Origin: a virus
Lineage: Duplodnaviria; Caudoviricetes
Strand: one strand, 5' to 3'
Length of the DNA: 41,800 nucleotides
IMG/VR virus record: IMGVR_UViG_3300030620_000015
Span: 1-41,800 of that record
Part shown: piece by piece, positions 5,177-30,397 of the stretch
Position numbering within the stretch: the stretch's first letter is position 1
Layout of the letters: the number at the start of each line of letters is the position of its first letter
Made by a program: the position numbers and the translations under genes
The notes under the pieces: generated by a model
What the model saw: only the letters and a program-made list of their open reading frames with translations
Databases searched by the model: none
What the model was told of the DNA's origin: nothing

Positions 5177-5339
5177 GTGCTACTTCTGCGGCAAGGAAGT
5201 CGTTGAAGATGATTTCTGCTCGGGTTGCGACGCTCATGTCTGCGACGAGTGCGCGCTGATGGATCCAATCGGCCCACATAACCCCAGCGATCACCAGAAC
5301 GTCGAAGAGGAGCTGGAGGAGGTAGAAGATGACGGCTAA
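5166..5339 (+). CDS. Small Cys/His-rich Zn-finger protein with acidic tail (57 aa)
   Basis: MSTECYFC...FCSGC...VCDEC...H; GAGG RBS. Confidence 0.75.
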   Translation: MSTECYFCGKEVVEDDFCSGCDAHVCDECALMDPIGPHNPSDHQNVEEELEEVEDDG

Positions 5340-5670
5340 CCGGCCGACCGAGGCAGAGATTCAGGCCGCGATGTCGGCCAAGTGGTTCGAGTGCGACAGC
5401 TGGGGCGACGCGTGCACCGGATTCCTCTGACCGGCCGCGGAGGTGCTGCGGTCGCGGCACCCGGAGGTCCGGTTCGAGCGCGTCTGGGGGAGCGAGTTTC
5501 TGGAGCCGGAGACCGACGCAATGGAGGAGGCGGGGCAGGCTCTCGTGGATGTGGCGCACTGGCTTGGTTTCACCGAGGCCAGGATGGGCCCTTTGTTGTT
5601 CGGCCACTATCGCTACCTGGAGGCCCTGGAAGCGGAAGGGCCGAGTATCTTCGAACGGAGGACTTACTGA
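5329..5670 (+). CDS. Putative selenoprotein A (113 aa; in-frame TGA 5428-5430, context ACTGFL-U-PAAEV)
   Basis: Strong GGAGGAGG RBS before ATG 5329. The frame stays open after the TGA and ends in a TGATG overlap with the next gene. A SECIS-like hairpin starts 11 nt after the TGA. Confidence 0.75.
5442..5461 (+). promoter_or_regulatory. Bacterial SECIS-like hairpin GGUGCUGC-GGUC-GCGGCACC
   Basis: 8-bp stem with GGUC apical loop. First loop G is at +20 from the UGA. Resembles the E. coli fdhF minimal SECIS (GGUUGCAGGUCUGCACC, 11 nt from the UGA). Confidence 0.75.
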
Positions 5671-6467
5671 TGTTACCGAGACTCGTGCAAGGAATGGGGT
5701 CCCGCGACGACGGGACCGTGTGCTGGATGAGCGCAAACGCCTGGGTTGCGGGCGAGGGCTGGACCGACGAGCCCTCGTGCGTCTGCCCGGTGATCCGCGG
5801 GCTGTGCATTCCGGCCAACGACTGGCTGGAGACCTACGCCGACCGTGAGCGGGTGATCGGACCCATTCTGTTCGTGCCGATGGGCACGGTGGGCGGCGCC
5901 GACTTGATGAGCCGCCGTGCGTTCGCGTGCGCCGACGTGGCGGTGCGGGAGTGGACACCGATGGCGCTGCGGGCGGCCGGGATGCACGAGCAGGCCGACA
6001 GGCTGGCGGCGCTTCCGGAGATCGTCGACGAAGCCACGGCCGAGGCCGCCGGGGCCGCCGCCAAGTCCGCCTGGGCCGCCGAGACCGCCAGGGCCGCCGC
6101 CAAGTCCGCCAGGGCCGCCGCCACGGCCGCCGAGGCCGCCAGGGCCGCCGCCACGGCCGCCGAGGCCGCCGCCAAGTCCGCCAGGGCCGCCAGGGCCGCC
6201 GAGGCCGCCAGGGCCGCCGCCACGGCCGCCGGGGCCGCCGCCACGGCCGCCACGGCCGCCGAGGCCGCCGGGGCCGCCGCCAAGTCCGCCTGGGCCGCCG
6301 CCACGGCCGCCGAGGCCGCCTGGGCCGCCGCCACGGCCGCCGAGGCCGCCTGGGCCGCCGGGTCCGCCGCCGAGCACCTGTTGGTGCCACTCATCCTGCG
6401 GCTGTGCGCGATGGGGCGCGAGGAGCTGCCCGTGGTGCGGCGGCTGGAGGATCTGGTGCAGCCGTGA
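5670..6467 (+). CDS. Phage protein with Cys/Trp N-domain and Ala-rich tripeptide-repeat C-domain (265 aa)
   Basis: VCWMS...GEGWTDEPSCVCPVI...ND followed by xAA repeats. Coupled at both ends. Confidence 0.8.
   Translation: MLPRLVQGMGSRDDGTVCWMSANAWVAGEGWTDEPSCVCPVIRGLCIPANDWLETYADRERVIGPILFVPMGTVGGADLMSRRAFACADVAVREWTPMALRAAGMHEQADRLAALPEIVDEATAEAAGAAAKSAWAAETARAAAKSARAAATAAEAARAAATAAEAAAKSARAARAAEAARAAATAAGAAATAATAAEAAGAAAKSAWAAATAAEAAWAAATAAEAAWAAGSAAEHLLVPLILRLCAMGREELPVVRRLEDLVQP
6033..6373 (+). repeat. Coding array of 9-bp NNN-GCC-GCC units with higher-order 27-36 bp duplications
   Basis: Encodes AAK/SAW/AAE/AAR/AAT repeats. Confidence 0.9.
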
Positions 6468-6610
6468 ACGCCAACGACCTCAAGGCCAAGCTCCGCGGGC
6501 TCTGCAGCCAGATCCTGGTTCAGGTCCGGCATTACCCGCACAACCATGACGCGCTGCGGGAACTGGCTGTGGCGATCATCGAACTTCTGGACGGGACCGA
6601 GGCTGAGTGA
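6464..6610 (+). CDS. Hypothetical protein (48 aa)
   Basis: GTGA overlap with GGAGG upstream. Confidence 0.6.
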   Translation: MNANDLKAKLRGLCSQILVQVRHYPHNHDALRELAVAIIELLDGTEAE

Positions 6611-6987
6611 TGGACAAGAAGCTAGCCAAGAGAGTCGTCCGCGCCTGCGTGCGGGCTCTGACCGATACCCAGGCCGCTAGGCTGATGACCCACGCGGCGA
6701 ACGAGACGCCGATCATCCATGACGAGAGGATCTGGAGCACTTGGTTCGCGCTCGGCGCCGGTTGACCGGCTGGACTGGCGGGATCCGACCGTGTGTTGGA
6801 TCATTACGGCAGTCCCTTGTTTCGGAATGACTGCTGCCTCGACGCCTTGAAGCGAATGGTCAATGTCGTAGAGCGCATCCAACTCGATGCCTACCAGAAG
6901 GCACACATGCCCCTCACGACCGACGAGATCCGCCGCATCTGGCTGGCCGAGGGCCGACGGCGCGGCTACGAGTTGGTGAACGCATGA
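6610..6987 (+). CDS. Putative selenoprotein B (125 aa; in-frame TGA 6763-6765, context WFALGAG-U-PAGLAG)
   Basis: Coupled start (TGATG 6608-6612). Same frame as ORF 6793-6987, which ends in an ATGA overlap. A weaker hairpin (6774-6792, GGAUC loop) follows the TGA. Confidence 0.6.
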
Positions 6988-7328
6988 GTTGGGAGGACAG
7001 GATCAAGCAGGCTGCAGCCATAGCTGCCATCGAGGCAACCACGCGTGAGCGTGGGCGCTGCTTGTGGGTCATCGACCATCTTGTCGAGCAGGCTGCAGAT
7101 GCGGCGGACAGCAAGATCCTGCCCTCCGAGGGGGACTTGCACGTTCGCGAGATCAAGGTTAGGTTGATGCGTGCGATGGCCTACATGGTCAAGCAAGCCA
7201 TCGTCGCAGGACTGGAACCGGCAAAGCATGGAACGCCCGGTCACGGTGTTAGGGAAGGCGCTGCTCACTCTGGTGAGGGAGCGAGCGGCGCCATTTTTCC
7301 TTTCCCTCACCGAACGGAGGAGTCATGA
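6984..7328 (+). CDS. Hypothetical protein (114 aa)
   Basis: ATGA overlaps at both ends. Confidence 0.7.
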   Translation: MSWEDRIKQAAAIAAIEATTRERGRCLWVIDHLVEQAADAADSKILPSEGDLHVREIKVRLMRAMAYMVKQAIVAGLEPAKHGTPGHGVREGAAHSGEGASGAIFPFPHRTEES

Positions 7329-7732: not shown

Positions 7733-7761
7733 AGCTACGGAGCTGCGGGGTGCACCCCGCC

Positions 7762-7799
7762 GGGGCCGCAGGAGGGTGAGACCTGCGGCCCCACTTTTC
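7762..7799 (+). terminator. Probable intrinsic terminator
   Basis: 11-bp perfect stem GGGGCCGCAGG/CCTGCGGCCCC followed by ACTTTTC. Confidence 0.65.
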
Positions 7800-7814
7800 A
7801 CCAAGGATCCACCG

Positions 7815-8704: not shown

Positions 8705-9467
8705 ACTCCAAGTGTGGGCTCCGAGCCCCTTCGACGGCGATGACCTGCTCCCCGTGGCCCTGGGGGCCAGGAAGGTCGACGACACCGGCCGGCAGAACAT
8801 CGAGCCCGGCGACCTGATCTTCCCGACCCTCAAGATGCTGCAGGGCAGCAGCGAGGAAGTGAAGCAGGGCGTCGATGGCGCCAAGGCTGGGCTCTTCTGG
8901 CTCACGGGGGTCAACGAGGTCTTCAAGCCCCCGATCCGCGTGCTGGCCTGCGCGCACACGAAGTCGCGGACCCTGTTTCCCAAGCCGGACCGTCCCGAGC
9001 ACGCCGGGCTCCAGGAGTGCTTGTCGCGAGACGGTCGGTGGGGCAGCAGCTACGGCGACTGCGTCTCTTGCAGCCACAAGGACTGGGACAGCGTGAACTC
9101 CCGACCGCCCGCATGCAGTGAGAGTCACAACTTCACGGTTCTCACCCCCATGGGGCCGGCGATCATCCGATTCGCGCGCACGAGCATCAAGAGTGCGCGG
9201 AACTTCCTGACAGCTTGGCGGATGTCGCCCGACACGCTGTGGTCGCACCCCATCGTCATCACGACGAAGATCCGGACGGACATGGTCAACGGGCGCCCGA
9301 GCACGACCCACGTGATGGAAATGCGCTGGCTGATGCGCGAGAATGTCCCTCCCGACGTGCAGGCGGCTGCACGCACGATCTACGACCAGGTGATGACCGC
9401 GAATGTCGAAGGACGATTCGACAACCAGCAGCAGAATGGCGTCGACACCGACGACGTTCCCTACTAG
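8697..9467 (+). CDS. Putative single-stranded DNA-binding/annealing protein (256 aa)
   Basis: SSB-type acidic tail DTDDVPY, four-Cys Zn module, and position directly before the primase-helicase. Confidence 0.7.
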   Translation: MGELQVWAPSPFDGDDLLPVALGARKVDDTGRQNIEPGDLIFPTLKMLQGSSEEVKQGVDGAKAGLFWLTGVNEVFKPPIRVLACAHTKSRTLFPKPDRPEHAGLQECLSRDGRWGSSYGDCVSCSHKDWDSVNSRPPACSESHNFTVLTPMGPAIIRFARTSIKSARNFLTAWRMSPDTLWSHPIVITTKIRTDMVNGRPSTTHVMEMRWLMRENVPPDVQAAARTIYDQVMTANVEGRFDNQQQNGVDTDDVPY

Positions 9468-9482
9468 CTCGCGGACAGAAGA

Positions 9483-9510
9483 ACGGGCCGCCCCGCTACA
9501 GGCGGCCCGT
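9483..9510 (+). promoter_or_regulatory. 10-bp GC hairpin immediately upstream of the primase-helicase RBS
   Basis: ACGGGCCGCC-8 nt-GGCGGCCCGT with no U-tract. GGAGGG follows at 9512. Confidence 0.5.
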
Positions 9511-9523
9511 CGGAGGGACTGCG

Positions 9524-12500
9524 ATGAACAGCGCGTTCAGGGCTGTCAAGGAAGCTGTCCGGAAGAGTCCGGAGGCCATCCTTGCCGAGTTCGGCGTCAA
9601 AGGCAAGAAAGAAGGGAAGAAGCTCACCGCCGAGTGGAACACCGGCTTCCTCTGCCCCCTCTGCAACGACCAGAGTGGCAGTGCCAGCTTCTCTCAAGGG
9701 CTGCACCTGATCTGCCATCAGTGCGGAGCTGGATCGCAGGGACACAAGGGGCTCGATGTCTTCGACTGGGCTTCACGGTTTCTCGGCAAGTCCCCCTGGG
9801 ACGTCTGCAAGCACATAGCTGATCGCCTCAACGTCTCGCTGCCGAAGGTCAAGCGGCCGGCTCAGGGAGTGAGGAGCATGCCGTCTCGAATGACGGCAGA
9901 CGTCCTGAACGCAGCGCAGATCGATCTGTGGGAGGACTACCATGCCAAGTCTGCGCGCGAGGAACTGCAGCGCCGTGGTTTCGGCGATCAGCTGCAGCTC
10001 GTGCGCCTTGGCATCGGCTGGATCCGCGGATGGATAATCTTCACCACGCGCGACGCTGGCGGCCGGCTGCACGAGCGATATCGGGGCTGGAACCCGTTGG
10101 CCTCCAGGGGTAACGCCAAGTGGCAGTGGTTCGGCCACGCCAAGGGGACTGGCGGCGTCGGGTTCTGGCCGTCCACCCCTCCGGAGGGGGAGGGCCCGGT
10201 GCTGTTGTGCGAGGGCGAGGGGGACACGCTCACGGCGATCGTGCGACTGCGCCTCCCCTACCACTGCGTGACCTGGACGGCCGGGGCCAGCAGCTTCCCG
10301 GCTCCCAACGAGCTGCCTACGTGGCTTCGCAACCGCGAGGTCCACGTCGCCTACGACAACGACGTCTTCCAGGGTCCTGACTACGCAAGCTATGCGGTGG
10401 TCACGGCGCCTGGCAAGCTGCCAGACCACGCCAGACAGGCGATGCAGAACCGGTTGCGGATACTCCTCGGCCGCCTCTGCCCCACCCTTGCCTCCGCCGG
10501 CAACAAGGTCGTCCTCCGCAAGTGCCCGATCGACCCCCACAAGAACTTCGGGGGCGACCTGCGGGACTGGGCGGACGCCGGCGGCAGGGACTTCGAAGGC
10601 GAGTGGACTCCGTTCCCGTTCGAGAACCTGCCGGACTACACGCGGCCCGTCAAGGACGTGGTGTTCGTCGACGTCTTCGAGCAGTTCGATGACACCCCGG
10701 TTCGAACTGCCATGCAGGTCGAGACTGTCGGGCACAACACGCTCACGATCCCGCAGGTGATGCAGATGGATTGCGCGATGGGACAGCATGCCAGCTGCGC
10801 TGTATGCCCCGGAGCTCGCCGCTTCCCCGACGGAGTCGTCGACCTGGACCCCTACCAGTCCGAGCTCGCGCAAGCCCTGAGCTCGAAGAACCCCAAGGAG
10901 GTCATCAAGGAGCTCGTCATCAAGGCGCCGCGCAGCTGCCCTGGGCTCGACCTAGCGACGGTCCAAGGTCGTCGAGGCGCTCACTGGACGGCCTACGATG
11001 CGGACGATCCGACGCATGCGTCGCTGACCGTGTTCAGCTCGGACCAGCCCAGCCTGAGCGGCGAACTGGAAGTAGAGGGCAGCGTCTTCAACAACCGGCT
11101 CGGCAGCGGTGTCGTCCTGATGGCCAGCAAGGTCCGCTCCCAGGACACGGCCGTCGACATGAGCGAGTTCCACAACGACTTCCTGCAGGAGACTCCGGCC
11201 TTCACGAACGACATCGACACGCTGTGGGAATACTTCGAGACTCGATGGCGCGACCTGAGCGCCAACGTCACGAAGATCTACGGGCGGCGCGACGTGCAGA
11301 TCGCTTTCGATCTGCTGCTGCACAGCACGTTACTCCTGCCGCTGAGCGGGAAGGCGCTGCGCGGATGGCTCGACATCTGCGTCCTCGGGGACACCAGGAC
11401 CGGGAAGTCGGAGACGTTCCGGCGCTGCATGCAGCACGTTCGCATGGGCGTCGTGCAGGCTTCGACCGGGAACGTCTCCCGTGCGGGGATGATGATGGGA
11501 GCCAGCCGCGACGGGCTGCTCAAGCCGGGAGCGTTCCCGCGCAACGACGGCAAACTGATGCTGTTCGACGAAGCGCATCACATGTTCCGGCACCTACGGA
11601 CGCCGGCAGACGGCCGGCCGATGGCGTGGATGCAGGACCCCAGGGACCAGGGCATCGCGCACGGCATGAAGATCTACGGTGACCGCTCGCTGCTCGCTCG
11701 AGTGCGGCTGGCCCTGATCTCGAACTGGATCGGCCGCAAGTCGAGCACGTTCATCTTCCCCTGCCAGCATCTCGCAGCCCTATACGAGACGCCGGAGTCG
11801 CTCGCTCGCCTGGATTTCGGCGTCGTCGTTCAGGGTCGGCCGACGGAAACGTCGCTGCCGGAGGCTGAGCACTTCTGGACGGCCCCTCGAGCCAGGGCGC
11901 TGGCCCAGCGGGCATGGTCCCAGGAGCCCCACCACGTGTTCATCGACGAACAGGCCGAGATCATGGCGAGGGAGCGGTGCGCGGCCTGGGCGACCGTCTA
12001 CGACGACGACAAGGTCCCCCTGTTCACGGTCGAGGAGAAGTGGGTCAGTGTCCTCCGGGTTGCTGCAGCAGCCGCCAACGTGTCCTACAGCCACAAGGGG
12101 AAGGACTTGCTGAGCGTCCACGTTCGCCCTGTGCACGTCGAGTTCGCTTGCCAGTGGCTGGAGCACACCTGGGAGCTCTCCAGCTATGGCGCCTACTCTG
12201 CTTCGGCGAGGAAGTCGCAGAACGTAGTGAACCCAAAGATGGCGGAACGCACGGTCCTCTGCGACACGAACACCAGGTCGCCGGAAGCTGCGCAGGTGTT
12301 GATCGAGCAGCTTTCCGAGCCCTTCACCGTTCAGGAGCTGCAGACAATCCTGGGCCTGGAGCAGAACGTTGCGAACGGATGGCTTCGGAGGATGCAGAAC
12401 TACCGCGTTTTCGAGCGGTCGCGTTGGGATGGGCGAACCACCTACTTGCCGACGGGGGGTGGCAAGGAGTTTCTGCGCGAGCTGCAGGACATCGCGCAGC

Positions 12501-12613
12501 AGCTGGACCAGGGAGAGTGGGATAGCTATTGGGGCGCACTGATGGCGAAGCAGGACATCGGCGGGCTCTTCCCGATGAACGGACGCCAGGAATCAGAAGC
12601 TACGCCGTTCTGA
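9524..12613 (+). CDS. Zn-finger/Toprim primase fused to MCM-like AAA+ helicase (1029 aa)
   Basis: CPLC..CHQC; Toprim LLCEGEGD and YDND; MCM-like DICVLGDTRTGKS, GNVSRAG, KPGAFPRNDGKLMLFDE, LARVRLALISN, ESLARLDF; acidic-aromatic tail. Confidence 0.85.
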   Translation: MNSAFRAVKEAVRKSPEAILAEFGVKGKKEGKKLTAEWNTGFLCPLCNDQSGSASFSQGLHLICHQCGAGSQGHKGLDVFDWASRFLGKSPWDVCKHIADRLNVSLPKVKRPAQGVRSMPSRMTADVLNAAQIDLWEDYHAKSAREELQRRGFGDQLQLVRLGIGWIRGWIIFTTRDAGGRLHERYRGWNPLASRGNAKWQWFGHAKGTGGVGFWPSTPPEGEGPVLLCEGEGDTLTAIVRLRLPYHCVTWTAGASSFPAPNELPTWLRNREVHVAYDNDVFQGPDYASYAVVTAPGKLPDHARQAMQNRLRILLGRLCPTLASAGNKVVLRKCPIDPHKNFGGDLRDWADAGGRDFEGEWTPFPFENLPDYTRPVKDVVFVDVFEQFDDTPVRTAMQVETVGHNTLTIPQVMQMDCAMGQHASCAVCPGARRFPDGVVDLDPYQSELAQALSSKNPKEVIKELVIKAPRSCPGLDLATVQGRRGAHWTAYDADDPTHASLTVFSSDQPSLSGELEVEGSVFNNRLGSGVVLMASKVRSQDTAVDMSEFHNDFLQETPAFTNDIDTLWEYFETRWRDLSANVTKIYGRRDVQIAFDLLLHSTLLLPLSGKALRGWLDICVLGDTRTGKSETFRRCMQHVRMGVVQASTGNVSRAGMMMGASRDGLLKPGAFPRNDGKLMLFDEAHHMFRHLRTPADGRPMAWMQDPRDQGIAHGMKIYGDRSLLARVRLALISNWIGRKSSTFIFPCQHLAALYETPESLARLDFGVVVQGRPTETSLPEAEHFWTAPRARALAQRAWSQEPHHVFIDEQAEIMARERCAAWATVYDDDKVPLFTVEEKWVSVLRVAAAAANVSYSHKGKDLLSVHVRPVHVEFACQWLEHTWELSSYGAYSASARKSQNVVNPKMAERTVLCDTNTRSPEAAQVLIEQLSEPFTVQELQTILGLEQNVANGWLRRMQNYRVFERSRWDGRTTYLPTGGGKEFLRELQDIAQQLDQGEWDSYWGALMAKQDIGGLFPMNGRQESEATPF

Positions 12614-13667: not shown

Positions 13668-13905
13668 GCTTGATCCCGAAGTAGCCCAGCACGAGGGCTA
13701 CGGCTCCGTCGGCAACGTCGCCGAGGACCCCGCGCACCCCGCCGCCACCGTAGGCCGAACGCATGGCGTCAATGATGACCTGCTTGGTGTCCGACGGCAG
13801 GTCTGAGTTGTTCACGACGTCGATGGCCTTCTCCAACGAGAAGGAATCGAACATGCCGCAGCTCGTGAGCAGCATCAGGAGAGCGATCAGCAGCAACTTC
13901 TTCAT
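13618..13905 (-). CDS. Lipoprotein with C-terminal hydrophobic segment (spanin-like)
   Basis: MKKLLLIALLMLLTSC lipobox; GAVALVLGYFGI followed by a basic tail. Confidence 0.7.
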   Translation of the reverse strand: MKKLLLIALLMLLTSCGMFDSFSLEKAIDVVNNSDLPSDTKQVIIDAMRSAYGGGGVRGVLGDVADGAVALVLGYFGIKHAPKLFGKKPPAPPAG

Positions 13906-16900
13906 CAGTTCCTCTCGACGATTCTGCGCGCCAGTTCGTAGGAGCGCTTGTTGGCTTCTTCTTGGCTCATGCGCCCCTCGCGGGCGGCCTTGCGGAGATC
14001 GGACAGCTGGCGAACAGCCGTGTCCACCCGTCTCTTCAAGGACTTCTCGCGCACCGAGAGTTCGTCCTCGCGTTGCGTGATGTCAGTGCGCATCCCGTAG
14101 AGCTCGTCGACGTAGCGGCTCTGGCCGTGGACCTGCTGGCTGTAGAACCGGCGGAACATCGAGATCCCCGTCGGGGAGAAGGCTGGGTGGTCCTTCGCTC
14201 CAGTGACCTCGTCGAGGGTTCGGAGGACTGCCGTGCTCGTGCCCGCTGTGTAGCCGCCGAGCAGGTGCTCGATCTCGATGGGCGTCAGCACGCCGTTCAT
14301 CACCCTGCTCATCAGCTTGGCCGACTCCGACGTCATGAACGTCGCCTGTTCCTGCGGCTTCTGGCTGCGGAGGATCCAGTCAGGCGTGAGGTCGCGGCCG
14401 GTGAAGAAGCTGTAGTTCGTCCATACTTCGTAGAGCGGCTTCGCAAAAGCCGGCATCACGTCGAAGTAGGGGCCCATGACTGACGACGCGATTTCCCTCA
14501 ACCCGGCGGGGTCGTTGCCCACCATGCGATCGAGCATCATCTCCGGAAGCGACCCGAAGATCGTTCCGGCTTCGAACGGCTTGGGGATCGAGATGATCTG
14601 CCCCCCGATCTTCATGTTGAAGTAGTAGACCTTCCGCCAGTCGGGCAGGTCCTGATACCACTCTTCGTCTTTGTTCATCGCCCACAGGAAGACCGCTGGA
14701 ACGGTGATGTTCGCCATTCCATTCAGCCAGGCTGCACGCTGCACGCGAGCCTTGTTGGCTTCACCCTTGGTGTCCACGCCGCCTTGCAGCAGCTGGCCGA
14801 ACAGCTTGCGTTGCCCCTGCAGGCCGGCGTTGAAGTAGGGGATGATCTGGTTGAGGATGCGGCCGTAGACGCCGGCCCGCGCGAAGTTGACGGTGATCTC
14901 GCGGCCGGCTTCGAGCGCGAGCATCCTGGCTTCCGTCTCGCTCGACCCCCTGGCTCGAGCCTGATCGTAAGCCTCCTTGAAGGCGTCCATGCGCAGGTAG
15001 CTCTCCGGCGTTGCCAGGAACCTCTGCGCCTTGTCGGTCCACTCCTTGAGGCCATGCATGATGCCTGGATGCTGCCCTGCGAGCTGGCGAGCACGCCCCT
15101 CGTTCAGGAACGACGCCGTCTTAACTCCCAGCTCCTCGTAGAGATCCCGGATCGCGCCACCCTCGTGGTAGAGCTTCGCTCCTCGCCACAACCTGGCGAA
15201 CCCGCCGAACGGTCGGAAGCGACCTTGCGGGTCGAACATCGGCTGGCTCATCGCGTCGCGCACCAGGTTCGCCACGGTGAACGCCGGCTGGATGCCGGTC
15301 GCGAAGAAGCGGATGACGTCACGCGGAGCCTGCAGCCACTTCATCACCGGCTGCATCGACTCCGGCAACTGCGGCATCTTGTCGATGCCCATGAGCGCCT
15401 CGTAGACCTTGGTATCGACCTCCATCCAGACGACCTTGCCGTTCTGGCGGCGCAACGCAGCTGCTGCGGCTCCCTGGCTGGTCAGGCCATTGATCTCCCT
15501 CTCCGTCAGCCGTGGCGTGTAGGCGATCATGGCCTTCTGGTCGGTCGGCATCGTCTTTTGCGTGAACAGCGTGATGGTCTGCGGGTTCAGCGCGTCAGCA
15601 GCCTGCAGCGCTTCGAGCATCGGATCGAGCTCTGCATCGCCCAGCTTCTCCTGCAGCAGCTCCAGGACGCGCTTGACGCTGTGCTCGTGCGGGACGTTCT
15701 TCGGCTGGACCATCGTCGCCAGGCCGCCGACCTCGTGCCCTGCAGCCATCTTGTAGAGAGCCGTCATGACCTGATGCTGGTGAGCCTTCGCGATCAGGGA
15801 CCGGGCAGTGTCCTGCAACGCCCGCAGCGGGTCCTGGATCTCGAACTGGCTGCCCTTGGCTCGGTGAAGCCCAGTTCCTCGCTCCGCGATCCCTCGGCCT
15901 CGACCGTGCGCTGCAGGCCCCTCCATGACCCTGAACATCGGGACGTAGACGACGTAGGCGTCCTTGATCCGCGACGCGGTGTCCACGTCGATCGCCCCGG
16001 ACTGCTGCACGTAGTCGACGAGTGCGTCGGTCCACTTCTTGAGCGCGCGAGCTGCCGTGCGGATCTTCGGGGTGTTGGTCTGCCGGATCGTCTCGATGTA
16101 GTCGCTCGGTGGAAGCATCGCCTTCCGACCGCGCTTCATGCGCTGCATATTGATGACCGCCGTGACGTGATCCAGGAAGTCCGCGGTCTCTTCCGGCGTG
16201 AAGTCCTTGAGCACTTCGGCCATCCCGGGGATCTTCCCTCCGGAGGGAAGGCGGATGCCGTTGAGGATGTAGTGCTCGGCGGTCTTGGACGCAGTCATGC
16301 GCAGCGCGTCGTATAGGCGCGCTGGGTCGCTGGTGATGTCGACGTCCTCTGGCTTGCGGCCTACGGCTTCGAGCCACTTGTCCTGGCTCTTCTTCATCTC
16401 GGCCATGTCGTCGAGCCACGCCTTGTCCAGAACGGTCTTCAAGCGCTCGACGACGCCCGGCTTGTGCCGTTGCTCTTCCGCTGTCGGTTGGTCGGTCTGG
16501 TGCACGCGCTCCATGCGCACGCGACCCCTGGCTCCCTGCGCGTTGTAGCTCGCGATCAACTGCTGGATGCGTAGATACTGCGGACGCAGCGCCGCGTTCT
16601 CAGCGGCGGCCAGGAACCGGGTGTGCCACTGCGAGAGCGATGGATACTTCGCCGCCAGGTGAGGATCGCCGAGCAGGTTCCGGGCGTGCCACTCAGCCCA
16701 GCTCTCCGCCCACTTCATGCGCAGCGGCATCTTCGCCGGGCCTGATCCGTAGCGCTGCAACATCGCGTCCATCTCGTCGATGATCCGCGAGTCCTGCCGG
16801 ACCGCCTCGCGGGCTTGTTGCAGGCCAGCACGCAAGTAGCCATGACCGCTCTCTCCGATCATGTGGCGGTGCATCGCGTGCGACCACTCGTGTGCCGCGA

Positions 16901-19466
16901 CCACGATGTCTCGACCCTCCTTGGTGCGGATCAGATTCTCGTGGAACTTGAAGTGCCCGAGCTCCTTACCCTTGATGAAGCCTCCCCGGATCTTCGTGCG
17001 GACCCGATCAGGGTCGCTGCCTCCGATCCGCTTGGCGGTGAACGGGATGCGCAGACCCTTGCCACCGTGCTGTCCTTCCATCGCGAGGAAGATGTCGCTC
17101 TGGCGCACACCCGGCTCTCCGGCCGGACGTGTGCCGGCCACTTCGCGATAGGGCGGCCAATCCCCCGACTCCGGCATGCCCTTCCGGACGCCCACGTCCT
17201 CGGAAGGACGAACTTCGAGGGCCTCCCCCCTCAACTCCCGGGGCTCCAGTCCAGCCTTCTCCCACGCCCGCCTGGCAGCAGGCTGCAGGTCCTGCGCTGT
17301 CGCGCCGCCATCGGGGAACTTGGCGGCCATCCTCTTCATGACCTCCGAGAACAGGCCCTTGCCCTGGTGCTCCGGGACGATGTCGGCGCTGAACGAGACG
17401 AACTGCTTGCCCTTCGGAGTATAGAAGCCGCGGCCGATCACGGCGCCCTTCTGGTCCCTGATGGTCCATTCGTGCGTCCAGGGCTGGTCGGTGGCCTCGG
17501 ATTGCCGGAACTCCAGGCTGGCCTCCCCAGCCTTCCCGATGGCTTCGACCTCGCCTGCCTCCCTCCTGGACTGCTCTTCGATGGTCCTGATCTTCCTGGT
17601 CGCCTCCATGCGCTCGGCTGAACCACGCTGCGGGTCGCGGGCGATCATCCCGAGGGATTCGATCTCCTCGGTTGTTTCACGTGGGGTCTCTCTGGCGACA
17701 GCCTCTGCGGTGTCTTCGGCCGCAAGGATCCTGTCGACCTCCCCCTGTGGGCTGCGGCTACTGAGCTCCTGGACGTCCAGGGATGCCTCGAACTCGGTCA
17801 GCTCCTTCCTGGCCGCCTCCCGGCCCGCAGGCGTCCTGGCCCTCCTGTAGACCTTGGATAGGAAGTCCAGCTCGCTCAGCTGCTCAGGGGTCATCCCGGT
17901 CTTCGAGATCGCCTCTGGGTCAGCCTCGCCCCGGACGGCCCGCTCCGCGAACTCCTGCCTGGCCATGCTCCGGCGGACCTGCTGGGACGCGGCGTCGGCG
18001 ATCAGCTGGTTTTCGCTGCTCAGAAACGGCCGGCCGCCGGTTGCCGCCTTGAAGAGCATGAAGCCGACCGCGTTCTTGGCGTAGGTCTCCCAGGTCTCCT
18101 CGTTCGGGTTCTGGATGAAGCCCCAGGCGCTGGGCAGTAGGTCAGGAGCATGCGCCTCCAGGGCGCCGAAGCCGACGCCCTCCATCGCTCCACCGACAAG
18201 CTGGGCGACACGGCGCGGCATCTTCGCTCGGTGCTCGGCGAACCACTCGGTGCGCTTACCCATCGCTCCAAGGGCCATCAGCACCGGAGCCATCGTCATG
18301 CCGTGCACGAACGATGCTCCGTAGCCATCGATGCGGCCGTAGGCCATCGTCTCAGCGACACCGTTGCCCACCGCGGCGCCCATGGCTCCGCTGATCGTCC
18401 GGATGACTTTCCGGCCGCGCTCGGACATCCCGACTGCGCCGGTCAGCCGAAGCGTGGCGAGGTTGGTCATCCCTCGCTCGACCAGCTCGCCGAAAGTCTT
18501 CTGGCCGACCTTCATCGCTGCTCCTGCAGGAGCGCCGAAGCCGAACCCCATGCCGATGATCCGCGAGCCGCCTAGGATGATCGTGTCGATGCCGTCGCGC
18601 TGAGCGACTTCCCACTCGCGTGCCGCGCGGAACTCGGCGACCTTCTGCTCGATGTTGTCTCCGGTGATCGCGGCTCCCATCATGACGAGGGTGTCCATGA
18701 ACGCCGGCGCTCGACCGCCGTTGTCGTAGAGCTTGCCGTCCGGTCCCTGCACGTAGTTGTAGGGGAACGAAGGACCGACGTCCGGACCGCCGAGAGCGAG
18801 GATGCCAGCACGCCCTAACTCGTAGACCCCATGGATGGTGTTCGTCCCGAAGTCCATCACGCCTTCGGCGGCTTCTGCTACCGCCATCCAGACCGTCCCT
18901 ACTGCTCCGAGTTCCGCGCGCTGTTCTCCCTCACGTAGGAAGCCTGCGGTCCCCTGTCCAGACTCGCGGTTGATCCACTGGCCGATGTGCTTCGTGCGAG
19001 GGTCAGTGAAGAAGTCGAACGACGGGTCGATCGCCTTGCCTTGCGCCTGGATCTTCGCAGCGATGCCCCGCATGTTCGCCAGCACGTTCGGATCGACGGT
19101 GACGGGCTGGCTCTGCTGCGCTTGCTCCAACCACTGCTGCTCGTTCGCGGCTCGTTTGATCTGCACCGCGGCGTTTTGCGTCTTGTATTGCTCGATGACC
19201 CCTTGCCAGAACTGACTCAACTCGCTCCAGCCGCTTTGCTCGTTCAAGAAGATCTGCTGGTTCATCTGGCGCGTGGACTGCTCCATGCGCCACACCTGAT
19301 CGGTGATGAACGTGTCGTCGAACTGCGGGGGGCCGAGGGGGTTCGGCTCCGAGATGACGTTCTGTCCCTGCATCCCTTGCAGGATGCGGCCCATCACAAG
19401 CCGCTCTTCGTCCATGCCGACTTCGAGCGGGTCGGGCACGGCCCCCGGCACCTCGAAGTCGCTCAC
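13905..19466 (-). CDS. Large polyvalent / internal virion (ejection) protein, 1853 aa: GNAT-like, HExxH peptidase and LPD38-like domains
   Basis: IVPEHQGKGLFSEVM (GNAT motif A); AAHEWSHAMH...ESWAE; WYQDLPDWRKVYYF...IPKPFEAG (LPD38-like). Lies after the ejection genes. Confidence 0.8.
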   Translation of the reverse strand: MSDFEVPGAVPDPLEVGMDEERLVMGRILQGMQGQNVISEPNPLGPPQFDDTFITDQVWRMEQSTRQMNQQIFLNEQSGWSELSQFWQGVIEQYKTQNAAVQIKRAANEQQWLEQAQQSQPVTVDPNVLANMRGIAAKIQAQGKAIDPSFDFFTDPRTKHIGQWINRESGQGTAGFLREGEQRAELGAVGTVWMAVAEAAEGVMDFGTNTIHGVYELGRAGILALGGPDVGPSFPYNYVQGPDGKLYDNGGRAPAFMDTLVMMGAAITGDNIEQKVAEFRAAREWEVAQRDGIDTIILGGSRIIGMGFGFGAPAGAAMKVGQKTFGELVERGMTNLATLRLTGAVGMSERGRKVIRTISGAMGAAVGNGVAETMAYGRIDGYGASFVHGMTMAPVLMALGAMGKRTEWFAEHRAKMPRRVAQLVGGAMEGVGFGALEAHAPDLLPSAWGFIQNPNEETWETYAKNAVGFMLFKAATGGRPFLSSENQLIADAASQQVRRSMARQEFAERAVRGEADPEAISKTGMTPEQLSELDFLSKVYRRARTPAGREAARKELTEFEASLDVQELSSRSPQGEVDRILAAEDTAEAVARETPRETTEEIESLGMIARDPQRGSAERMEATRKIRTIEEQSRREAGEVEAIGKAGEASLEFRQSEATDQPWTHEWTIRDQKGAVIGRGFYTPKGKQFVSFSADIVPEHQGKGLFSEVMKRMAAKFPDGGATAQDLQPAARRAWEKAGLEPRELRGEALEVRPSEDVGVRKGMPESGDWPPYREVAGTRPAGEPGVRQSDIFLAMEGQHGGKGLRIPFTAKRIGGSDPDRVRTKIRGGFIKGKELGHFKFHENLIRTKEGRDIVVAAHEWSHAMHRHMIGESGHGYLRAGLQQAREAVRQDSRIIDEMDAMLQRYGSGPAKMPLRMKWAESWAEWHARNLLGDPHLAAKYPSLSQWHTRFLAAAENAALRPQYLRIQQLIASYNAQGARGRVRMERVHQTDQPTAEEQRHKPGVVERLKTVLDKAWLDDMAEMKKSQDKWLEAVGRKPEDVDITSDPARLYDALRMTASKTAEHYILNGIRLPSGGKIPGMAEVLKDFTPEETADFLDHVTAVINMQRMKRGRKAMLPPSDYIETIRQTNTPKIRTAARALKKWTDALVDYVQQSGAIDVDTASRIKDAYVVYVPMFRVMEGPAAHGRGRGIAERGTGLHRAKGSQFEIQDPLRALQDTARSLIAKAHQHQVMTALYKMAAGHEVGGLATMVQPKNVPHEHSVKRVLELLQEKLGDAELDPMLEALQAADALNPQTITLFTQKTMPTDQKAMIAYTPRLTEREINGLTSQGAAAAALRRQNGKVVWMEVDTKVYEALMGIDKMPQLPESMQPVMKWLQAPRDVIRFFATGIQPAFTVANLVRDAMSQPMFDPQGRFRPFGGFARLWRGAKLYHEGGAIRDLYEELGVKTASFLNEGRARQLAGQHPGIMHGLKEWTDKAQRFLATPESYLRMDAFKEAYDQARARGSSETEARMLALEAGREITVNFARAGVYGRILNQIIPYFNAGLQGQRKLFGQLLQGGVDTKGEANKARVQRAAWLNGMANITVPAVFLWAMNKDEEWYQDLPDWRKVYYFNMKIGGQIISIPKPFEAGTIFGSLPEMMLDRMVGNDPAGLREIASSVMGPYFDVMPAFAKPLYEVWTNYSFFTGRDLTPDWILRSQKPQEQATFMTSESAKLMSRVMNGVLTPIEIEHLLGGYTAGTSTAVLRTLDEVTGAKDHPAFSPTGISMFRRFYSQQVHGQSRYVDELYGMRTDITQREDELSVREKSLKRRVDTAVRQLSDLRKAAREGRMSQEEANKRSYELARRIVERN

Positions 19467-22198: not shown

Positions 22199-23328
22199 GT
22201 CAGTCGCTCCACCCGCCCGAAGGCGTTGACCACACTGCCCGTGGTCGCGTAGGCGGTGACGGTGTCAGTCGCCGCGCCACCGAGCACGGCGCCATCGACC
22301 GCCATGACCGTCTCGTTGGCCGGGACGATCACGTCGATCTCGTTGCCCACCCCGGTCGTCCCGAACTCGATCGTTACGGTGACGGCGGCGCTGCCCGTGT
22401 TGGCCAGCCAGATGTAGATGCGATCGATGGATCCAGCCGTCGTGGTGGCCGTGTGGATCGTGGTGCCGGTCGATGCGGTGGCGGTGATCTGGATTGGACG
22501 GCCGCGAGTGCTGCCGCTTAGGGCGATGGTTTCCACTACGTCTCCTGGATTGGAGTCACGGATCCATAGCGCACCATCCTCATCGACGTGCATGAGGCCG
22601 TAGCTGCCGGGGCTCTCCTGGCTGGATCCGAGTGGATCGGTGCACTTCACGATCGCCGGGACGCCGAGAACACCGGTCAGGATCGTGTCGAGAGTGGAGA
22701 CGATATCCAGTATCTTGCTGATGTCATTTCCGCTCCTGACCAGGCCGCTAGTTCTGAGGTAACCAAACTCGTCCGTGATGGGTGGGATGTAGTCACCATT
22801 ACCAGCCAGCACGTTGACGAGGCTTGGGTTGTCGTGCCGGACAGCCAGCGCCATCACCCCGGTGGATCCGCTGTTGTGGACAGAGTCCTCCGACTTGCCG
22901 AGCTGGGTGTTTCCTGTCCCTGGGACCACTCCAGCCGTGATGGACGACACAGTGACAGTCCCGGCGACCGGAACTGAGAGGTTCGTGATGAGGATCGGAA
23001 CGGGGTTGAGGAAGGCAACATCAGCGTCGCCGACCTGGATGTTGGAGTTGCAGTTGAGGTTGTCGTGGGTTGCCTGTGCGGCCGTGACGGTTCCGCCCAC
23101 GACCCATGGAGACGTGCCCTGGTCTACCGTGATCGGATCGTTCTCGATCGACACCGGCAGCACGCCCGGCGTGCTGGCCGCGACCGCCACACCAGCGACC
23201 GCGGTAACGTCGACGCTTCCGCCGCCGCCGCCGCCAGTGCTGCTGACCAGCAGCCGCCCATTCACGACCCTGGCCAGCTCAGCCATGTCGTCCCGATCAG
23301 CGATCCTGACTTTTCCTCCGCCAGCCAT
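22195..23328 (-). CDS. Tail fibre/appendage-like protein (377 aa)
   Basis: Thr/Val/Gly-rich; poly-Gly linker; GKSEDSVHNSGSTGVMALAVR segment. Confidence 0.65.
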   Translation of the reverse strand: MAGGGKVRIADRDDMAELARVVNGRLLVSSTGGGGGGSVDVTAVAGVAVAASTPGVLPVSIENDPITVDQGTSPWVVGGTVTAAQATHDNLNCNSNIQVGDADVAFLNPVPILITNLSVPVAGTVTVSSITAGVVPGTGNTQLGKSEDSVHNSGSTGVMALAVRHDNPSLVNVLAGNGDYIPPITDEFGYLRTSGLVRSGNDISKILDIVSTLDTILTGVLGVPAIVKCTDPLGSSQESPGSYGLMHVDEDGALWIRDSNPGDVVETIALSGSTRGRPIQITATASTGTTIHTATTTAGSIDRIYIWLANTGSAAVTVTIEFGTTGVGNEIDVIVPANETVMAVDGAVLGGAATDTVTAYATTGSVVNAFGRVERLT

Positions 23329-28039: not shown

Positions 28040-28095
28040 CTAAACCTCCCGTTGATTATTGAGCGGATATATCGGCGCAATCAGGTTGGCATGCA

Positions 28096-29772
28096 TCAGA
28101 ACGCCAGCAGCGATCCCAGGCTCGCCGCCCTCGTGAGTGGAATCTGATCGGAGATGTTGCCGCGGAACACGTCAGCGATGCTGCGCATGACGTCCTGGTT
28201 GGTGATGTTCCTGTTGTTCTTGCGTCGAAGGTCCTTGAGCTTGCTCTGGTAGATGCCGGCCATGTTCGCGGCGTTCTGCGAGTCGGTGTCCAGCATCAGA
28301 GCATGAGCCGCAGCGCCGTAGATCAGGACGTCGATGTCTTCCTGCGGAACGAACGGGATCTCGACGTCCGCCTCGTAGGGGAACAGCTGCCGAGCATAGT
28401 AGGACACAATCATGAAGGGATCGTCCGACTGCTGCTGCTCCGTCAACTGCTGAATCACCGGCTTGGGGTAGATCTGGACCTGCATCTGGTTGTTGGGTCC
28501 AGGATCGGTTCGAAGGAAGACCTTCGGTCTGCCTCCTGACTGGGTCACCCCCTGCAAGAGTCGGTAGAAGTCCACCGGCTCCATCTCGGTCAGCGGGCGG
28601 TCGTTCCAGTTGCCGGGTCGGATGTATTCCAGCTCTCCAAGGTTCGCCGGCATCTCGTAGGTGTCGACCCCGTCGCTCAGGTAGATCCGCTCCTCACGGC
28701 GCAGCCACTGCCAGTAGCCTTCCTTGCGGATCAGGTCAGCCTCGGCTTCGAGAACGAAGTTCAGGTAGGTCTCGACCTTCGTCGCCGCCCCCGTGGTCGC
28801 GTTGTATTTCGCGTCGCCGTCCTTCTCGACGAGCGTGATGACCCGGTTGACCACGCGCTGGTATGTCCACTCCGTCCCTGGAGCGATGCGCACCGGGCGC
28901 CTGATCTCCCGGAACGTCTCGACCTGGAAGATGCCGCACCGCAGCAGGGACAGCCCTGCAAGGCCGTAGGGGCTCACGCCGGCCGGCTGGTCCACGAGCT
29001 GCCCCGAGAGGAACTCGAATCCTGGGAAGCCGACCTCGCCCCACAGGGGGTCCTTCTTGTCGGTGTAGGTGAGCTTGGGCTGGTTCAGGCTCCGGTCGTT
29101 GAGGTAGACCTCGAGGATGACCTCGTTGTCGGTCCGGCGTATGCGTAGGCGCATGTCCTGCCAGAAGCCCTTGTAGGGCAGCACGTCGCCTTCGGAGTAG
29201 GAGCTGGAGTCGAACAAGGGGTCCAGGTTCAAGTCGTCGTGGTCCAGCGTGACCGACGTCAGGACCACCATCTGGTCGACCTCGGTCGAGCTCGGCCTGC
29301 TGAGGTTCGGCAGCCGCTTCACCGGCATGAACTTGACGATCTTCAACACGGGGGCCGTGCCGTCCCGCGGCATCGTCACCCTGGCTCCGTAGCCCTGGTC
29401 GTAGCAGCTGGGGTCTTCCGCACTCCCCAGATCGAAGAGCAGCGGGTCCTTCGACATGCGGGCCAGGATCGTGAAGCTGCTGGGCTGATCGACGGAGATG
29501 GGGTCAGCGGCGCTGGGATCCTCGCCGTCGTGAGCCCATGTCGTCCGAACCATGTAGTTCGGTCCGTCCATGAACTCCCCCGTGTAGAGCACCTGAGTCT
29601 TGAGAGACGTGACGCCGGCGGGGAACAGAGGGCTCGCACCGCTGACCACGAGTTCGGCGTCGATCGGGATGACGGCCTCGTCGCTGATGATGACGCCACC
29701 ACAGGCGACCGTGTAGTTCTGACCGATGCCTCCGTCGGCTCGAGTGAACTTGTCGATGAAGCGTGATGTCAT
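28096..29772 (-). CDS. Head-tail adaptor (tail tubular A-like C-domain) with N-terminal beta-sandwich extension (558 aa)
   Basis: DGVDTYEMP...GGRPKVF...IYPKP...DVLIYGAAAHA adaptor pattern. Start MTSRFIDKF at an ATGA overlap. Confidence 0.7.
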   Translation of the reverse strand: MTSRFIDKFTRADGGIGQNYTVACGGVIISDEAVIPIDAELVVSGASPLFPAGVTSLKTQVLYTGEFMDGPNYMVRTTWAHDGEDPSAADPISVDQPSSFTILARMSKDPLLFDLGSAEDPSCYDQGYGARVTMPRDGTAPVLKIVKFMPVKRLPNLSRPSSTEVDQMVVLTSVTLDHDDLNLDPLFDSSSYSEGDVLPYKGFWQDMRLRIRRTDNEVILEVYLNDRSLNQPKLTYTDKKDPLWGEVGFPGFEFLSGQLVDQPAGVSPYGLAGLSLLRCGIFQVETFREIRRPVRIAPGTEWTYQRVVNRVITLVEKDGDAKYNATTGAATKVETYLNFVLEAEADLIRKEGYWQWLRREERIYLSDGVDTYEMPANLGELEYIRPGNWNDRPLTEMEPVDFYRLLQGVTQSGGRPKVFLRTDPGPNNQMQVQIYPKPVIQQLTEQQQSDDPFMIVSYYARQLFPYEADVEIPFVPQEDIDVLIYGAAAHALMLDTDSQNAANMAGIYQSKLKDLRRKNNRNITNQDVMRSIADVFRGNISDQIPLTRAASLGSLLAF

Positions 29773-30212
29773 TCGACCTTGCACTCCTTGTGCCTGGCGA
29801 GGTTGCTCGGGTCGTCCCAATACGCCTTGTCGCCGGTCTCCCGGATCTTTCCGTGGTAGAGATGCGTTGGGACCGAATGCGTCTGCCTGATCGATCCGCG
29901 CTGACCGCCGGCATCGCGGATCTGCTTGCGCCTCGCCCTGACCTCCTCCTGGAACTCGCGTTCCACTCTGGCTCCGCTCTTCCCCCCATCATCCTGGCTG
30001 CGGACCTGGTGCTGCAGCGGGATGTCGCTCGCATCACGGCACTTGCTCGTGTCCAACATCGGTGCGTCTGCCTGCCAGTCTCGGAGCATGACCTTGCCGC
30101 AGCCCTGCCGGATGGAATCGGTCGCACAGAAGACGGTGGAGGGTGGACCTTCTGCCATGGACCTGTGCGTCTCGTATCGAGATCCGCAAGAGCACTTGAA
30201 CGAGTAGATCAC
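29769..30212 (-). CDS. FmdB-like Zn-ribbon protein (147 aa)
   Basis: IYSFKCSCG..YE...C....GCGKVM; GTG start with AGAGG RBS. Confidence 0.75.
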   Translation of the reverse strand: MIYSFKCSCGSRYETHRSMAEGPPSTVFCATDSIRQGCGKVMLRDWQADAPMLDTSKCRDASDIPLQHQVRSQDDGGKSGARVEREFQEEVRARRKQIRDAGGQRGSIRQTHSVPTHLYHGKIRETGDKAYWDDPSNLARHKECKVE

Positions 30213-30397
30213 CGCTTGAACCTCTTGGTCCCGCGACCGCAGGGACGCTTCTTGCCGCCTCAACCGTATCCTTTGGCGACCATGTTCTTCACTGCAACGT
30301 GGCCGCACTTCTGGTTTGTGCACCGAACGGTCAGCCGGATGGCTGACCGTTCGACGCGGACTGGCGAGCTGCACTTGCTGCAGACTCGCTCAGCCAT
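30209..30397 (-). CDS. Putative selenoprotein C (62 aa): CxxC...CxxxxC Zn ribbon + G-U-GGKKRPC basic tail
   Basis: ATG overlaps the capsid stop. In-frame TGA at 30262-30260. The read-through stop overlaps the next GTG (GTGA). SECIS-like hairpin follows. Absent from the ORF track. Confidence 0.8.
30228..30246 (-). promoter_or_regulatory. Bacterial SECIS-like hairpin GUCCC-U-GC-GGUC-GC-GGGAC
   Basis: Bulged U and GGUC loop as in the E. coli fdhF SECIS. First loop G is at +22 from the UGA. Confidence 0.8.
30324..30353. other. Perfect 13-bp inverted repeat inside the gene following the capsid gene
   Basis: CGAACGGTCAGCC-ggat-GGCTGACCGTTCG. Confidence 0.85.

Follow-up and report, generated by a model that had tools for sequence, protein, structure and literature searches.

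A phage gene family with a conserved in-frame TGA codon and SECIS-like hairpins, probably decoded by host selenocysteine machinery

Three small genes with an in-frame TGA codon

We analyzed a window of 41,800 nucleotides from an uncultured soil Caudoviricetes phage (IMG/VR record IMGVR_UViG_3300030620_000015), in which an initial annotation had reported three small genes that each contain one internal in-frame TGA. All three codons are present as described, and the genes lie with their hairpins and neighbors as follows:

5329..5670, + strand: gene 1, a 113-aa protein of no known family, with a predicted selenocysteine (Sec) at codon 34 (FL-U-PA)
5428..5430, + strand: in-frame TGA of gene 1 (codon 34)
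5442..5461, + strand: SECIS-like hairpin of gene 1, with an 8-bp upper stem and a GGUC loop, 19 nt after the TGA; a lower stem reaches 5429-5474
6610..6987, + strand: gene 2, a 125-aa protein of no known family, with a predicted Sec at codon 52 (GAG-U-PA)
6763..6765, + strand: in-frame TGA of gene 2 (codon 52)
6782..6802, + strand: SECIS-like hairpin of gene 2, with an 8-bp stem and a CGUGU loop, 24 nt after the TGA
29769..30212, - strand: gene downstream of gene 3, with a weak zinc-ribbon match (PF09723, E 0.0047, below cut-off)
30209..30397, - strand: gene 3, a 62-aa C4 zinc ribbon with a Gly/Lys/Arg-rich tail and a predicted Sec at codon 46
30230..30243, - strand: SECIS-like hairpin of gene 3, with a 5-bp stem and a GGUC loop, 21 nt after the TGA, covarying in relatives
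30260..30262, - strand: in-frame TGA of gene 3 (codon 46), invariant in all relative loci with enough flank
30397..31425, - strand: major capsid protein gene (phrog_1328, E 1e-60), whose stop overlaps the start of gene 3

The reported overlaps with neighboring genes are likewise found at both ends of each gene. The start of gene 1 lies within the preceding ORF, whose end is at 5339, and the read-through stop of gene 1 overlaps the ATG at 5670. Genes 2 and 3 both start in a TGATG; gene 2 ends in ATGA and gene 3 in GTGA, where the read-through stop overlaps the GTG start of the downstream gene. TGA serves as an ordinary stop elsewhere in the window, ending 10 of 17 long genes. Sequencing error was rejected as an explanation: Logan contigs from two runs of one sample carry the identical letter at all three TGAs with no variant (the sample may be the window's own source, so this agreement rules out an assembly slip and does not amount to independent occurrence), and the gene 3 TGA is found family-wide. 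As initially noted, no selA, selB, selC or selD is recognizable, with no tRNA-Sec gene found in the window (the record is 91% complete) or in any of five complete relatives, and with zero matches to Sel protein families among the window ORFs scanned.

Each TGA is followed by a hairpin. Those of genes 1 and 3 had been recognized from their GGUC loops, which begin 19 and 21 nt downstream, respectively; the gene 2 hairpin had been overlooked, and its loop is that of the second class of gene 3 hairpins in relatives (see below). A 12-mer, CTGCGGTCGCGG, occurs only twice in the window, at 5446 (+) and 30242 (-), and it is indeed read in different codon phases (LRSR vs. PCGRG). The likeness once drawn to the Escherichia coli fdhF SECIS holds for the GGUC loop and less so otherwise: the fdhF element has a bulged U, the 8-bp stems of genes 1 and 2 are without a bulge, and the spacing of the window hairpins resembles that in SECIS elements of bacteria other than E. 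coli. The hairpins of all three genes fit the published SECIS rule, which asks for a stem of 4-16 bp and a loop of 3-9 nt with a G among its first two positions, lying 16-37 nt downstream of the UGA and with an energy of at most -7.5 kcal/mol; the hairpin stretches are at -14.9, -10.6 and -10.2. The rule is permissive enough that 11 of 26 ordinary TGA stops pass it on stem and loop (16-37 nt, stem of at least 4). The five Rfam matches at E <= 10 included no SECIS family. In Markov simulations (60 at each of three orders), a TGA followed 18-30 nt on by a GGUC or CGUGY hairpin arises 1.2-1.4 times per simulated genome with a stem of at least 5 and 0.03-0.08 times with a stem of at least 8; the window holds two stem-8 cases, both in frame, in genes 1 and 2. 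A loop-agnostic scan for coding sequence on both sides of a stop, followed by a hairpin, returned only these two genes in the window, recovering gene 3 in only a few records because its basic tail scores low.

Genes 1 and 2 are each a single gene, with colinear, full-length homologues. That of gene 2 (P0004; E 2.8e-15, 43% identity over 98%) has Cys at the TGA, the residue that the initial annotation had suggested looking for. The only full-length homologue found for gene 1 (P0015; E 1.9e-4, 39% identity, a weak match) also spans both halves across the TGA, with Ser in place of the hoped-for Cys; P0015 is known as a protein only, and its Ser would be one base change from TGA if encoded by TCA. 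Trp, Arg or Gln, any of which had been named as a sign of nonsense mutation, was not seen at the TGA positions among the homologues. The in-frame coding score of gene 1 is unbroken at the TGA (0.37 and 0.36 bits per codon), and the first 30 codons after the gene 2 TGA score poorly (-3.5 bits). With a model built on gene 3 hairpins, the gene 1 hairpin is the best non-training match (E 0.014); the residues beneath its loop (S-R) also occur in P0015, so the loop may partly reflect protein constraint. A possible restart ATG lies at 5521 in gene 1, and database gene callers choose it (P0013, P0014). The structure model of gene 2 (pLDDT 53) was too poor for a structure search, and P0004 had no usable match in the ESM Atlas.

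We found no DNA homologue of gene 1 or gene 2, and no second TGA-bearing copy, in viral contigs, 46 related records or GenBank phages, and a metagenome scan for their DNA returned only a record identical to the window. Two candidates were discarded: L141 is a short chance match to P0015, and P0016 is a repeat protein without a real alignment. The initial claim of several selenoproteins applies to this genome alone, as relatives showed only gene 3; no convincing further Sec gene emerged from them, a weak negative given that the all-against-all searches were flooded by off-frame matches.

Gene 3 and its hairpin in related phages

Throughout its family, gene 3 follows the major capsid gene immediately or almost immediately. 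The 45 residues before the TGA contain the whole zinc ribbon, and the predicted structure has an overall pLDDT of 75 with lower values in the tail (55-65); searching with this model brought up weak zinc ribbons and nothing at E <= 0.001. All 47 relative loci with sufficient flanking sequence keep the in-frame TGA, at capsid identities down to 68%; these loci comprise 38 distinct sequences, the window included, and stand for related sequences rather than independent events. By contrast, the capsid stop varies across 32 distinct loci (TAG in 18, TGA in 12, TAA in 2). Coding continues past the TGA with synonymous changes: in sequences with class-2 hairpins the next codon specifies Arg in 8 of 8, via CGA, AGA, CGG, AGG and CGC, and in those with class-1 hairpins it specifies Gly in 14 of 15, via GGC, GGT and GGG. 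A Cys follows within seven codons in 37 of 38 sequences, compared with 1 of 38 in each other frame, and the sole sequence without one has Cys at -3 instead. The spacing is UxxC in half of the family, with UC, longer spacings and one CxxU also present. The read-through stop overlaps the start of the next gene in 35 of 37. We found no Cys version of gene 3: TGC or TGT stands at the TGA in 0 of 38 distinct sequences, and all eight database homologues stop just before this position. Two further observations concern individual records, namely an extra TAG upstream within gene 3 in L186, and long gene 3 tails in L046, L177/L191 and L185 that do not end at the start of the next gene.

The hairpin, located 18-30 nt downstream of the TGA in relatives, is conserved as RNA, with covariation and frozen wobble positions. 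In the GGUC class (class 1; L026 dropped as a triloop), 97% of cells are paired and double changes occur at 3 of 5 pairs; in the CGUGY class (class 2; L040 and L046 dropped as misaligned by MAFFT, the window's gene 2 hairpin included), 94% of cells are paired and double changes occur at 4 of 4 pairs. The loop codon is GGT in 15 of 15 class-1 sequences and CGT in 8 of 8 class-2 sequences, vs. 15% and 17% in capsid genes. Other loop sequences, namely AGUU, AGGU and GGA, appear in other phases, and the loop class switches two to three times on a capsid tree (alignment without L052, which has a run of N). All of these loop types are consistent with the bacterial SECIS consensus of PMC13188914. A hairpin with a stem of at least 4 is present in 35 of 38 gene 3 sequences, and a rule-fitting one at 18-25 nt in 32 of 38, vs. 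5 of 26 ordinary TGA stops. The folding energy of the window's gene 3 hairpin is unremarkable alone (z 0.03 over 50 nt, -1.43 over 25 nt); for a hairpin so short and energetically ordinary, the weight comes from conservation.

Two metagenome-assembled genomes (MAGs) that hold a relative, G047 and G048, contain selB and a Sec-type selD, which is weak host evidence from co-binning, and we did not accept either as a host. In G047, the loop patterns show no excess over a reversed-pattern control (91 vs. 92 and 31 vs. 26); the other MAG has 41-44% GC, vs. 59% for the phage contig. Cultured phages reach a capsid identity of only about 30%.

Readings of the in-frame TGA codons

From these sequence comparisons, we consider it probable that the SelB and tRNA-Sec of the host read the gene 3 UGA as Sec, and likely that they do so at the UGAs of genes 2 and 1. 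Taken gene by gene, Sec is highly likely at the gene 3 UGA, quite likely at that of gene 2 and favored with less assurance at that of gene 1; since no tRNA-Sec gene was found in the phage, decoding by host SelB is the likely route in each. The initial proposal that the phage borrows host Sec insertion is supported at the level of sequence, most of the checks suggested with it having come out in its favor. Mechanistically, the hairpin 19-24 nt downstream would guide Sec insertion at the UGA, with SelB presumably binding its loop; insertion would compete with termination, and ordinary TGA stops would go on terminating. Gene 3 would encode a late protein with a zinc ribbon and a basic tail; the tail is likely to bind nucleic acid, and its Sec-Cys pair would serve as a redox or metal-binding switch. 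Read-through would also place ribosomes at the next late gene, whose start overlaps the read-through stop.

Gene 3 could be a selenoprotein gene while gene 1, perhaps also gene 2, has recently gained a nonsense mutation or been split and carries its hairpin by chance. Each of the two is a single sequence, and the Ser in the gene 1 homologue, the S-R shared beneath the loop and the possible restart used by gene callers would agree with this. We regard this as unlikely, given two 8-bp hairpins that carry the family's two loop types in frame where 0.03-0.08 are expected per genome, a coding score continuous over the gene 1 TGA, and the Cys homologue of gene 2. Decoding of UGA by a near-cognate tRNA, most likely Trp, helped by the 3' hairpin and yielding selenium-free short and long forms, would account for a TGA that never varies, for the coding sequence behind it and for the overlap of the read-through stop with the next start; it would also fit the missing Cys form of gene 3 and the Ser of P0015, and leaky UGA read-through is known from the Q-beta coat gene. 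A Trp homologue was not found, however, and the base 3' of the gene 3 TGA varies (G 19, C 9, A 8 and T 2; n = 38), and we judge this mechanism improbable.

The hairpins might instead be true SECIS elements at which the host inserts Cys via SelC*/tRNA-ReC, a system that decodes UGA as Cys given a SECIS in Desulfobacterota, Armatimonadota and other bacteria (PMC13582414 and PMC5389517); one MAG holding a relative is labeled Deltaproteobacteria. The same texts describe tRNA-ReC as an add-on to an ordinary Sec system in a minority of genomes, and a Cys product would predict some TGC or TGT among the 38 sequences, which makes this route quite improbable. There is very little to recommend the TGA being a real stop in all three genes, with a hairpin that serves the next gene as an operator or processing site: the ribbon is complete before the gene 3 TGA and the tail is modeled with lower confidence, but a simple stop codon should be as variable as that of the capsid gene. 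The synonymous changes behind the TGA, AGA/CGN exchanges at Arg among them, and the frame-specific Cys there make sense only if this stretch is translated, and genes 1 and 2 have full-length homologues. Least credible is genome-wide reassignment of TGA (code 4 or 25) in phage or host, which would explain in-frame TGAs in three genes but not why TGA ends 10 of 17 long genes or why the capsid gene may end in TGA, TAG or TAA; all-against-all comparison of relatives also gave no convincing in-gene TGA opposite Trp or Gly, the rows being off-frame by eye.

On the Sec reading, a broader and rather doubtful conjecture is that this soil and sediment phage family gates a late gene on host Sec decoding, thereby sensing selenium or host state, such that only Sec-inserting ribosomes would reach the next morphogenesis gene. 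In this phage the gate would have been extended to two early genes whose homologues have Cys or Ser before Pro, with Sec acting as a checkpoint rather than a catalyst.

Selenoproteins are known from cells. Viral examples are known from two poxviruses, namely the glutathione peroxidases of molluscum contagiosum and fowlpox (PMC8310308). We found no report of a bacteriophage selenoprotein in the literature searched, and the main text of a 2026 review of the prokaryotic selenoproteome does not contain 'phage', 'virus' or 'viral'. If the Sec reading is true, this widespread family of phages retains, beside the capsid gene, a Sec codon without a Cys alternative, which would restrict it to Sec-using hosts and tie its output to selenium, and one of its genomes would carry three unrelated new selenoproteins. 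Viral catalogues would then conceal proteins of this kind, since gene callers truncate gene 3 at the TGA in all eight database entries. On a single gene, the family also provides about 38 natural SECIS variants, among them at least five types of loop, as a test set for SelB recognition outside E. coli.

Comparison with known systems

With the Ogr/Delta-like zinc-finger late activators (PF04606), gene 3 shares a small C4 zinc ribbon in a phage; this model weakly matches 3 of 29 gene 3 members (best E 0.0051), the window protein scores 13.9 bits vs. a cut-off of 26.3, and many other zinc-ribbon families match equally well. To our knowledge, no Sec tail is known in that family. NF041197 (dual CXXC motif small (seleno)protein, RxU motif) is likewise a small protein, with a similarly spaced CxxC-x-CxxC zinc ribbon and an Arg ahead of the second strand; it weakly matches 15 of 29 members (best E 7e-5), with the window protein at 13.8 bits vs. 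a cut-off of 40. Hairpin geometry is similar, the 10 TGA-type NF041197 genes parsed having loops at 22-23 nt and stems of 6-8. In NF041197, however, Sec lies between the two CxxC motifs and the tail is acidic, whereas the gene 3 TGA follows the second motif in a basic tail, and the window's gene 3 has R-S-A (Arg, no Sec) in place of the RxU motif.

The poxvirus selenoproteins (PMC8310308) provide a precedent for a virus with its own SECIS that depends on host Sec insertion; they involve eukaryotic machinery and captured host enzymes, whereas here the proteins are small and phage-specific and the hairpins of bacterial type. Relative to bacterial SelB/SECIS selenoprotein genes, the present genes differ in being phage-encoded with no Sec machinery found, in encoding proteins outside the listed selenoprotein families, in having no Rfam SECIS match and unbulged 8-bp stems, and, for gene 3, in lacking a Cys-type orthologue. 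What they share with those bacterial genes is an in-frame UGA, a hairpin within the ORF 16-37 nt downstream, a loop in which one of the first two bases is G and the next is G or U, and a Sec placed near Cys (UxxC, CxxU or UC).

Internal TGA and reading frame of gene 3

The initial annotation had described three read-through frames with internal TGAs, a common 12-mer and start/stop overlaps, all of which we recovered:

5329-5670 (+): gene 1, internal TGA at 5428-5430
6610-6987 (+): gene 2, internal TGA at 6763-6765
30397-30209 (-): gene 3, a zinc ribbon after the major capsid gene, internal TGA at 30262-30260 (codon 46)

At each of the three TGAs the contigs of two runs from a single sample read alike, which answers the concern over sequencing error, and TGA is elsewhere the normal stop it was taken to be (the commonest ordinary stop, 10/17 long genes).

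Capsid searches yielded 46 viral loci, 2 MAG contigs and 11 further contigs (59 in all), 12 of which stop within the capsid gene or no more than 305 nt from it. Gene 3 is present in all 47 remaining loci with the TGA at the identical place in every one, and together with the window these make 38 distinct sequences. Our search pattern required a stop after the zinc ribbon, and since every locus with flank returned TGA under it, none carries a sense codon at this place. Among the same loci the capsid stop varies (TAG 18, TGA 12 and TAA 2 in 32 distinct loci), so a plain stop in gene 3 would have drifted. No Cys form of gene 3 was found among database homologues and the 38 distinct sequences.

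Codons +1 to +5 past the TGA vary mainly at third positions, as do those upstream of it. Codon +1 encodes Arg in 8/8 sequences with a CGUGY hairpin loop (class 2), AGA and AGG being among the five codons used; of the 15 with a GGUC loop (class 1), 14 have Gly there, via three codons. A Cys lies within seven codons past the TGA in 37/38 sequences, compared with 1/38 for each other frame, at +3 in 19, at +7 in 12 and at +1, +4 or +6 in 6; the sole exception has a Cys at -3. Lys and Arg make up 41% of the tail. Its read-through stop overlaps the next start (ATGA, GTGA or TGATG) in 35/37 sequences, and tails with such an overlap span 10-33 codons; the overlaps of two long-tailed relatives, L046 and L177, were taken as chance, and the tail of L184 runs past its contig end.

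Directly behind the capsid stop, HNH-endonuclease-like genes (labelled by eye) have been inserted ahead of gene 3, on either strand, in relatives L007-L013, L029, L031, L034 and L046. In L051, about 2 kb of other genes after 11026, beginning with a Gly-rich fibre-like ORF, set the capsid gene apart from gene 3 (13204). Gene 3 of L186 has, upstream of 5167, an extra TAG where the near-identical L184 and L185 have a Glu codon, reflecting either an error or a broken copy.

The hairpin behind the gene 3 TGA

Hairpins in gene 3 present two main loops, GGUC (16) and CGUGY (16), at 18-30 nt past the TGA. In GGUC stems 97% of cells are paired and 3/5 pairs doubly changed (15 sequences), and in CGUGY stems 94% and 4/4 (12 distinct sequences), counts that represent related sequences rather than independent events and that leave out L040 and L046 (class 2, misaligned) and L026 (class 1, triloop). 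For both classes the paired share was reached by 0/500 shuffles, with slid controls lower. The loop wobble base is frozen (GGT 15/15, CGT 8/8), compared with GGT/CGT usage of 15%/17% in capsid genes and 32%/12% upstream within gene 3. In distant members the loops (AGUU, AGGU, GGA and GGUC) are read in other phases and overlie unrelated residues, and across a capsid tree of 28 rows the loop class switches 2-3 times.

The bacterial SECIS consensus of PMC13188914 places a G at loop position 1 or 2 with G or U next to it, at 16-37 nt, and every gene 3 loop variant satisfies it. The rule is loose, as 11/26 ordinary TGA stops satisfy it with a stem of at least 4; at 18-25 nt, a rule-fitting stem of at least 4 follows 32/38 gene 3 TGAs vs. 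5/26 ordinary TGA stops.

Genes 1 and 2 in the window genome

A scan of the window with loop words learned from gene 3 relatives recovered genes 1, 2 and 3. Wider limits added two matches, one at 23281 (-), out of frame in its own gene, and one at 16933 (-), inside a long stop-free gene and therefore unable to be in that gene's frame. A stem of 8 was reached in genes 1 and 2 only (0.03-0.08 expected per simulated genome), and the gene 2 loop, CGUGU, belongs to the second loop class of the gene 3 family. The gene 1 hairpin is the top non-training match of a covariance model built from gene 3 (E 0.014, rough). An Rfam search of the window returned no SECIS family.

The gene 2 homologue P0004, an unedited database protein, reads GAGCPA opposite GAG-TGA-PA, placing Cys at the TGA. 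The one weak homologue of gene 1 (P0015) aligns on either side of the TGA with L-S-P opposite L-TGA-P, placing Ser there. Pro-Ala follows the TGA in both genes with the same codons, CCG GC (U-P-A), and a Sec residue here may be structural, because homologues have Cys or Ser before Pro. From the TGA onward the two genes have 8 bases in common, TGACCGGC (5428-5435 and 6763-6770 (+)).

The record (G000) is linear, 41.8 kb and 91% complete, with a soil metagenome as source per its run label. The left arm (+) holds an SNF2-type helicase and small early genes, and the right arm (-) terminase, portal, major capsid and internal virion genes; identity of the capsid with that of cultured phages is only about 30%. 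Ala-rich repeats (units such as AARAAATAAEA) at 6030-6360 (+), within the gene at 5670-6467 between genes 1 and 2, draw a pile-up of many unrelated contigs. Four genes flank terminase (36286-37626, 37587-38216, 40482-41228 and 41225-41782 (-)), three of them glycosyltransferase-like and one a methyltransferase, possibly for capsid or DNA modification. An ORF of 1124 aa at 9239-12613 (+) weakly matches an MCM P-loop (E 4e-4) and is likely a primase-helicase; none of the window ORFs scanned was recognisable as a DNA polymerase. An internal virion-like protein of 1853 aa at 13905-19466 (-) has a C-terminal LPD38 domain (E 2e-31).

Decoding of the UGA and comparison with known systems

The UGA and hairpin in the window are a real feature. 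In gene 3 the UGA, translation behind it and hairpin are all conserved; gene 2 has one Cys homologue, and no phage tRNA-Sec was found. From what is established for bacterial Sec insertion, host SelB-GTP-Sec-tRNA would bind the hairpin loop, and the UGA would be decoded as Sec in competition with release factor 2. Recognition of a SECIS by SelB can differ from lineage to lineage. Borrowing of host machinery, as initially suggested, agrees with our finding no tRNA-Sec in the window nor in 5/5 complete relatives. Among genomes L053-L101, relatives of the MAG G047 that holds a relative contig but was not accepted as the host, selD was above cut-off in 21/21; its types were Sec, Cys and Gly-Gly-Cys-Gly, and two copies occurred in several genomes.

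Near-cognate read-through would also carry translation past the UGA, and we regard it as improbable. Less probable still is SECIS-guided insertion of Cys by tRNA-ReC. A more serious contender, though still unlikely, is that gene 1 or 2 is in decay, which is compatible with Sec in gene 3. Both genes have positive codon scores in frame before and after the TGA, though the 30 codons past that of gene 2 score poorly. The relatives searched yielded no copy of either gene, and the initial claim of several selenoproteins thus belongs to the window genome and does not extend beyond it.

Under Sec insertion, read-through of gene 3 may also drive the next late gene, as the conserved stop/start overlap suggests. 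The gene 3 model is a zinc ribbon (residues 1-40 pLDDT 81-87, tail 55-65) that weakly resembles several zinc-ribbon families and is a member of none; nucleic acid binding is likely for its basic tail. The constant presence of a Cys near the predicted Sec suggests a selenenyl-sulfide or metal site, redox motifs usually taking the form UxxC or CxxU (PMC13188914).

In the literature searched, mostly non-subscription and including PMC13188914, PMC13582414, PMC8310308, PMC5029168, PMC5389517 and bioRxiv 10.64898/2026.09.15.751765, we found no reported bacteriophage selenoprotein, nor a phage family in which a late gene looks Sec-only or a single genome with three candidates; entries from phages or prophages might exist in supplementary selenoprotein tables. 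Bacterial selenoprotein genes of NF041197 (10 TGA-type genes parsed out of 25 loci) share the geometry of gene 3, with loops at 22-23 nt. The decoding mechanism would be of an already known kind.
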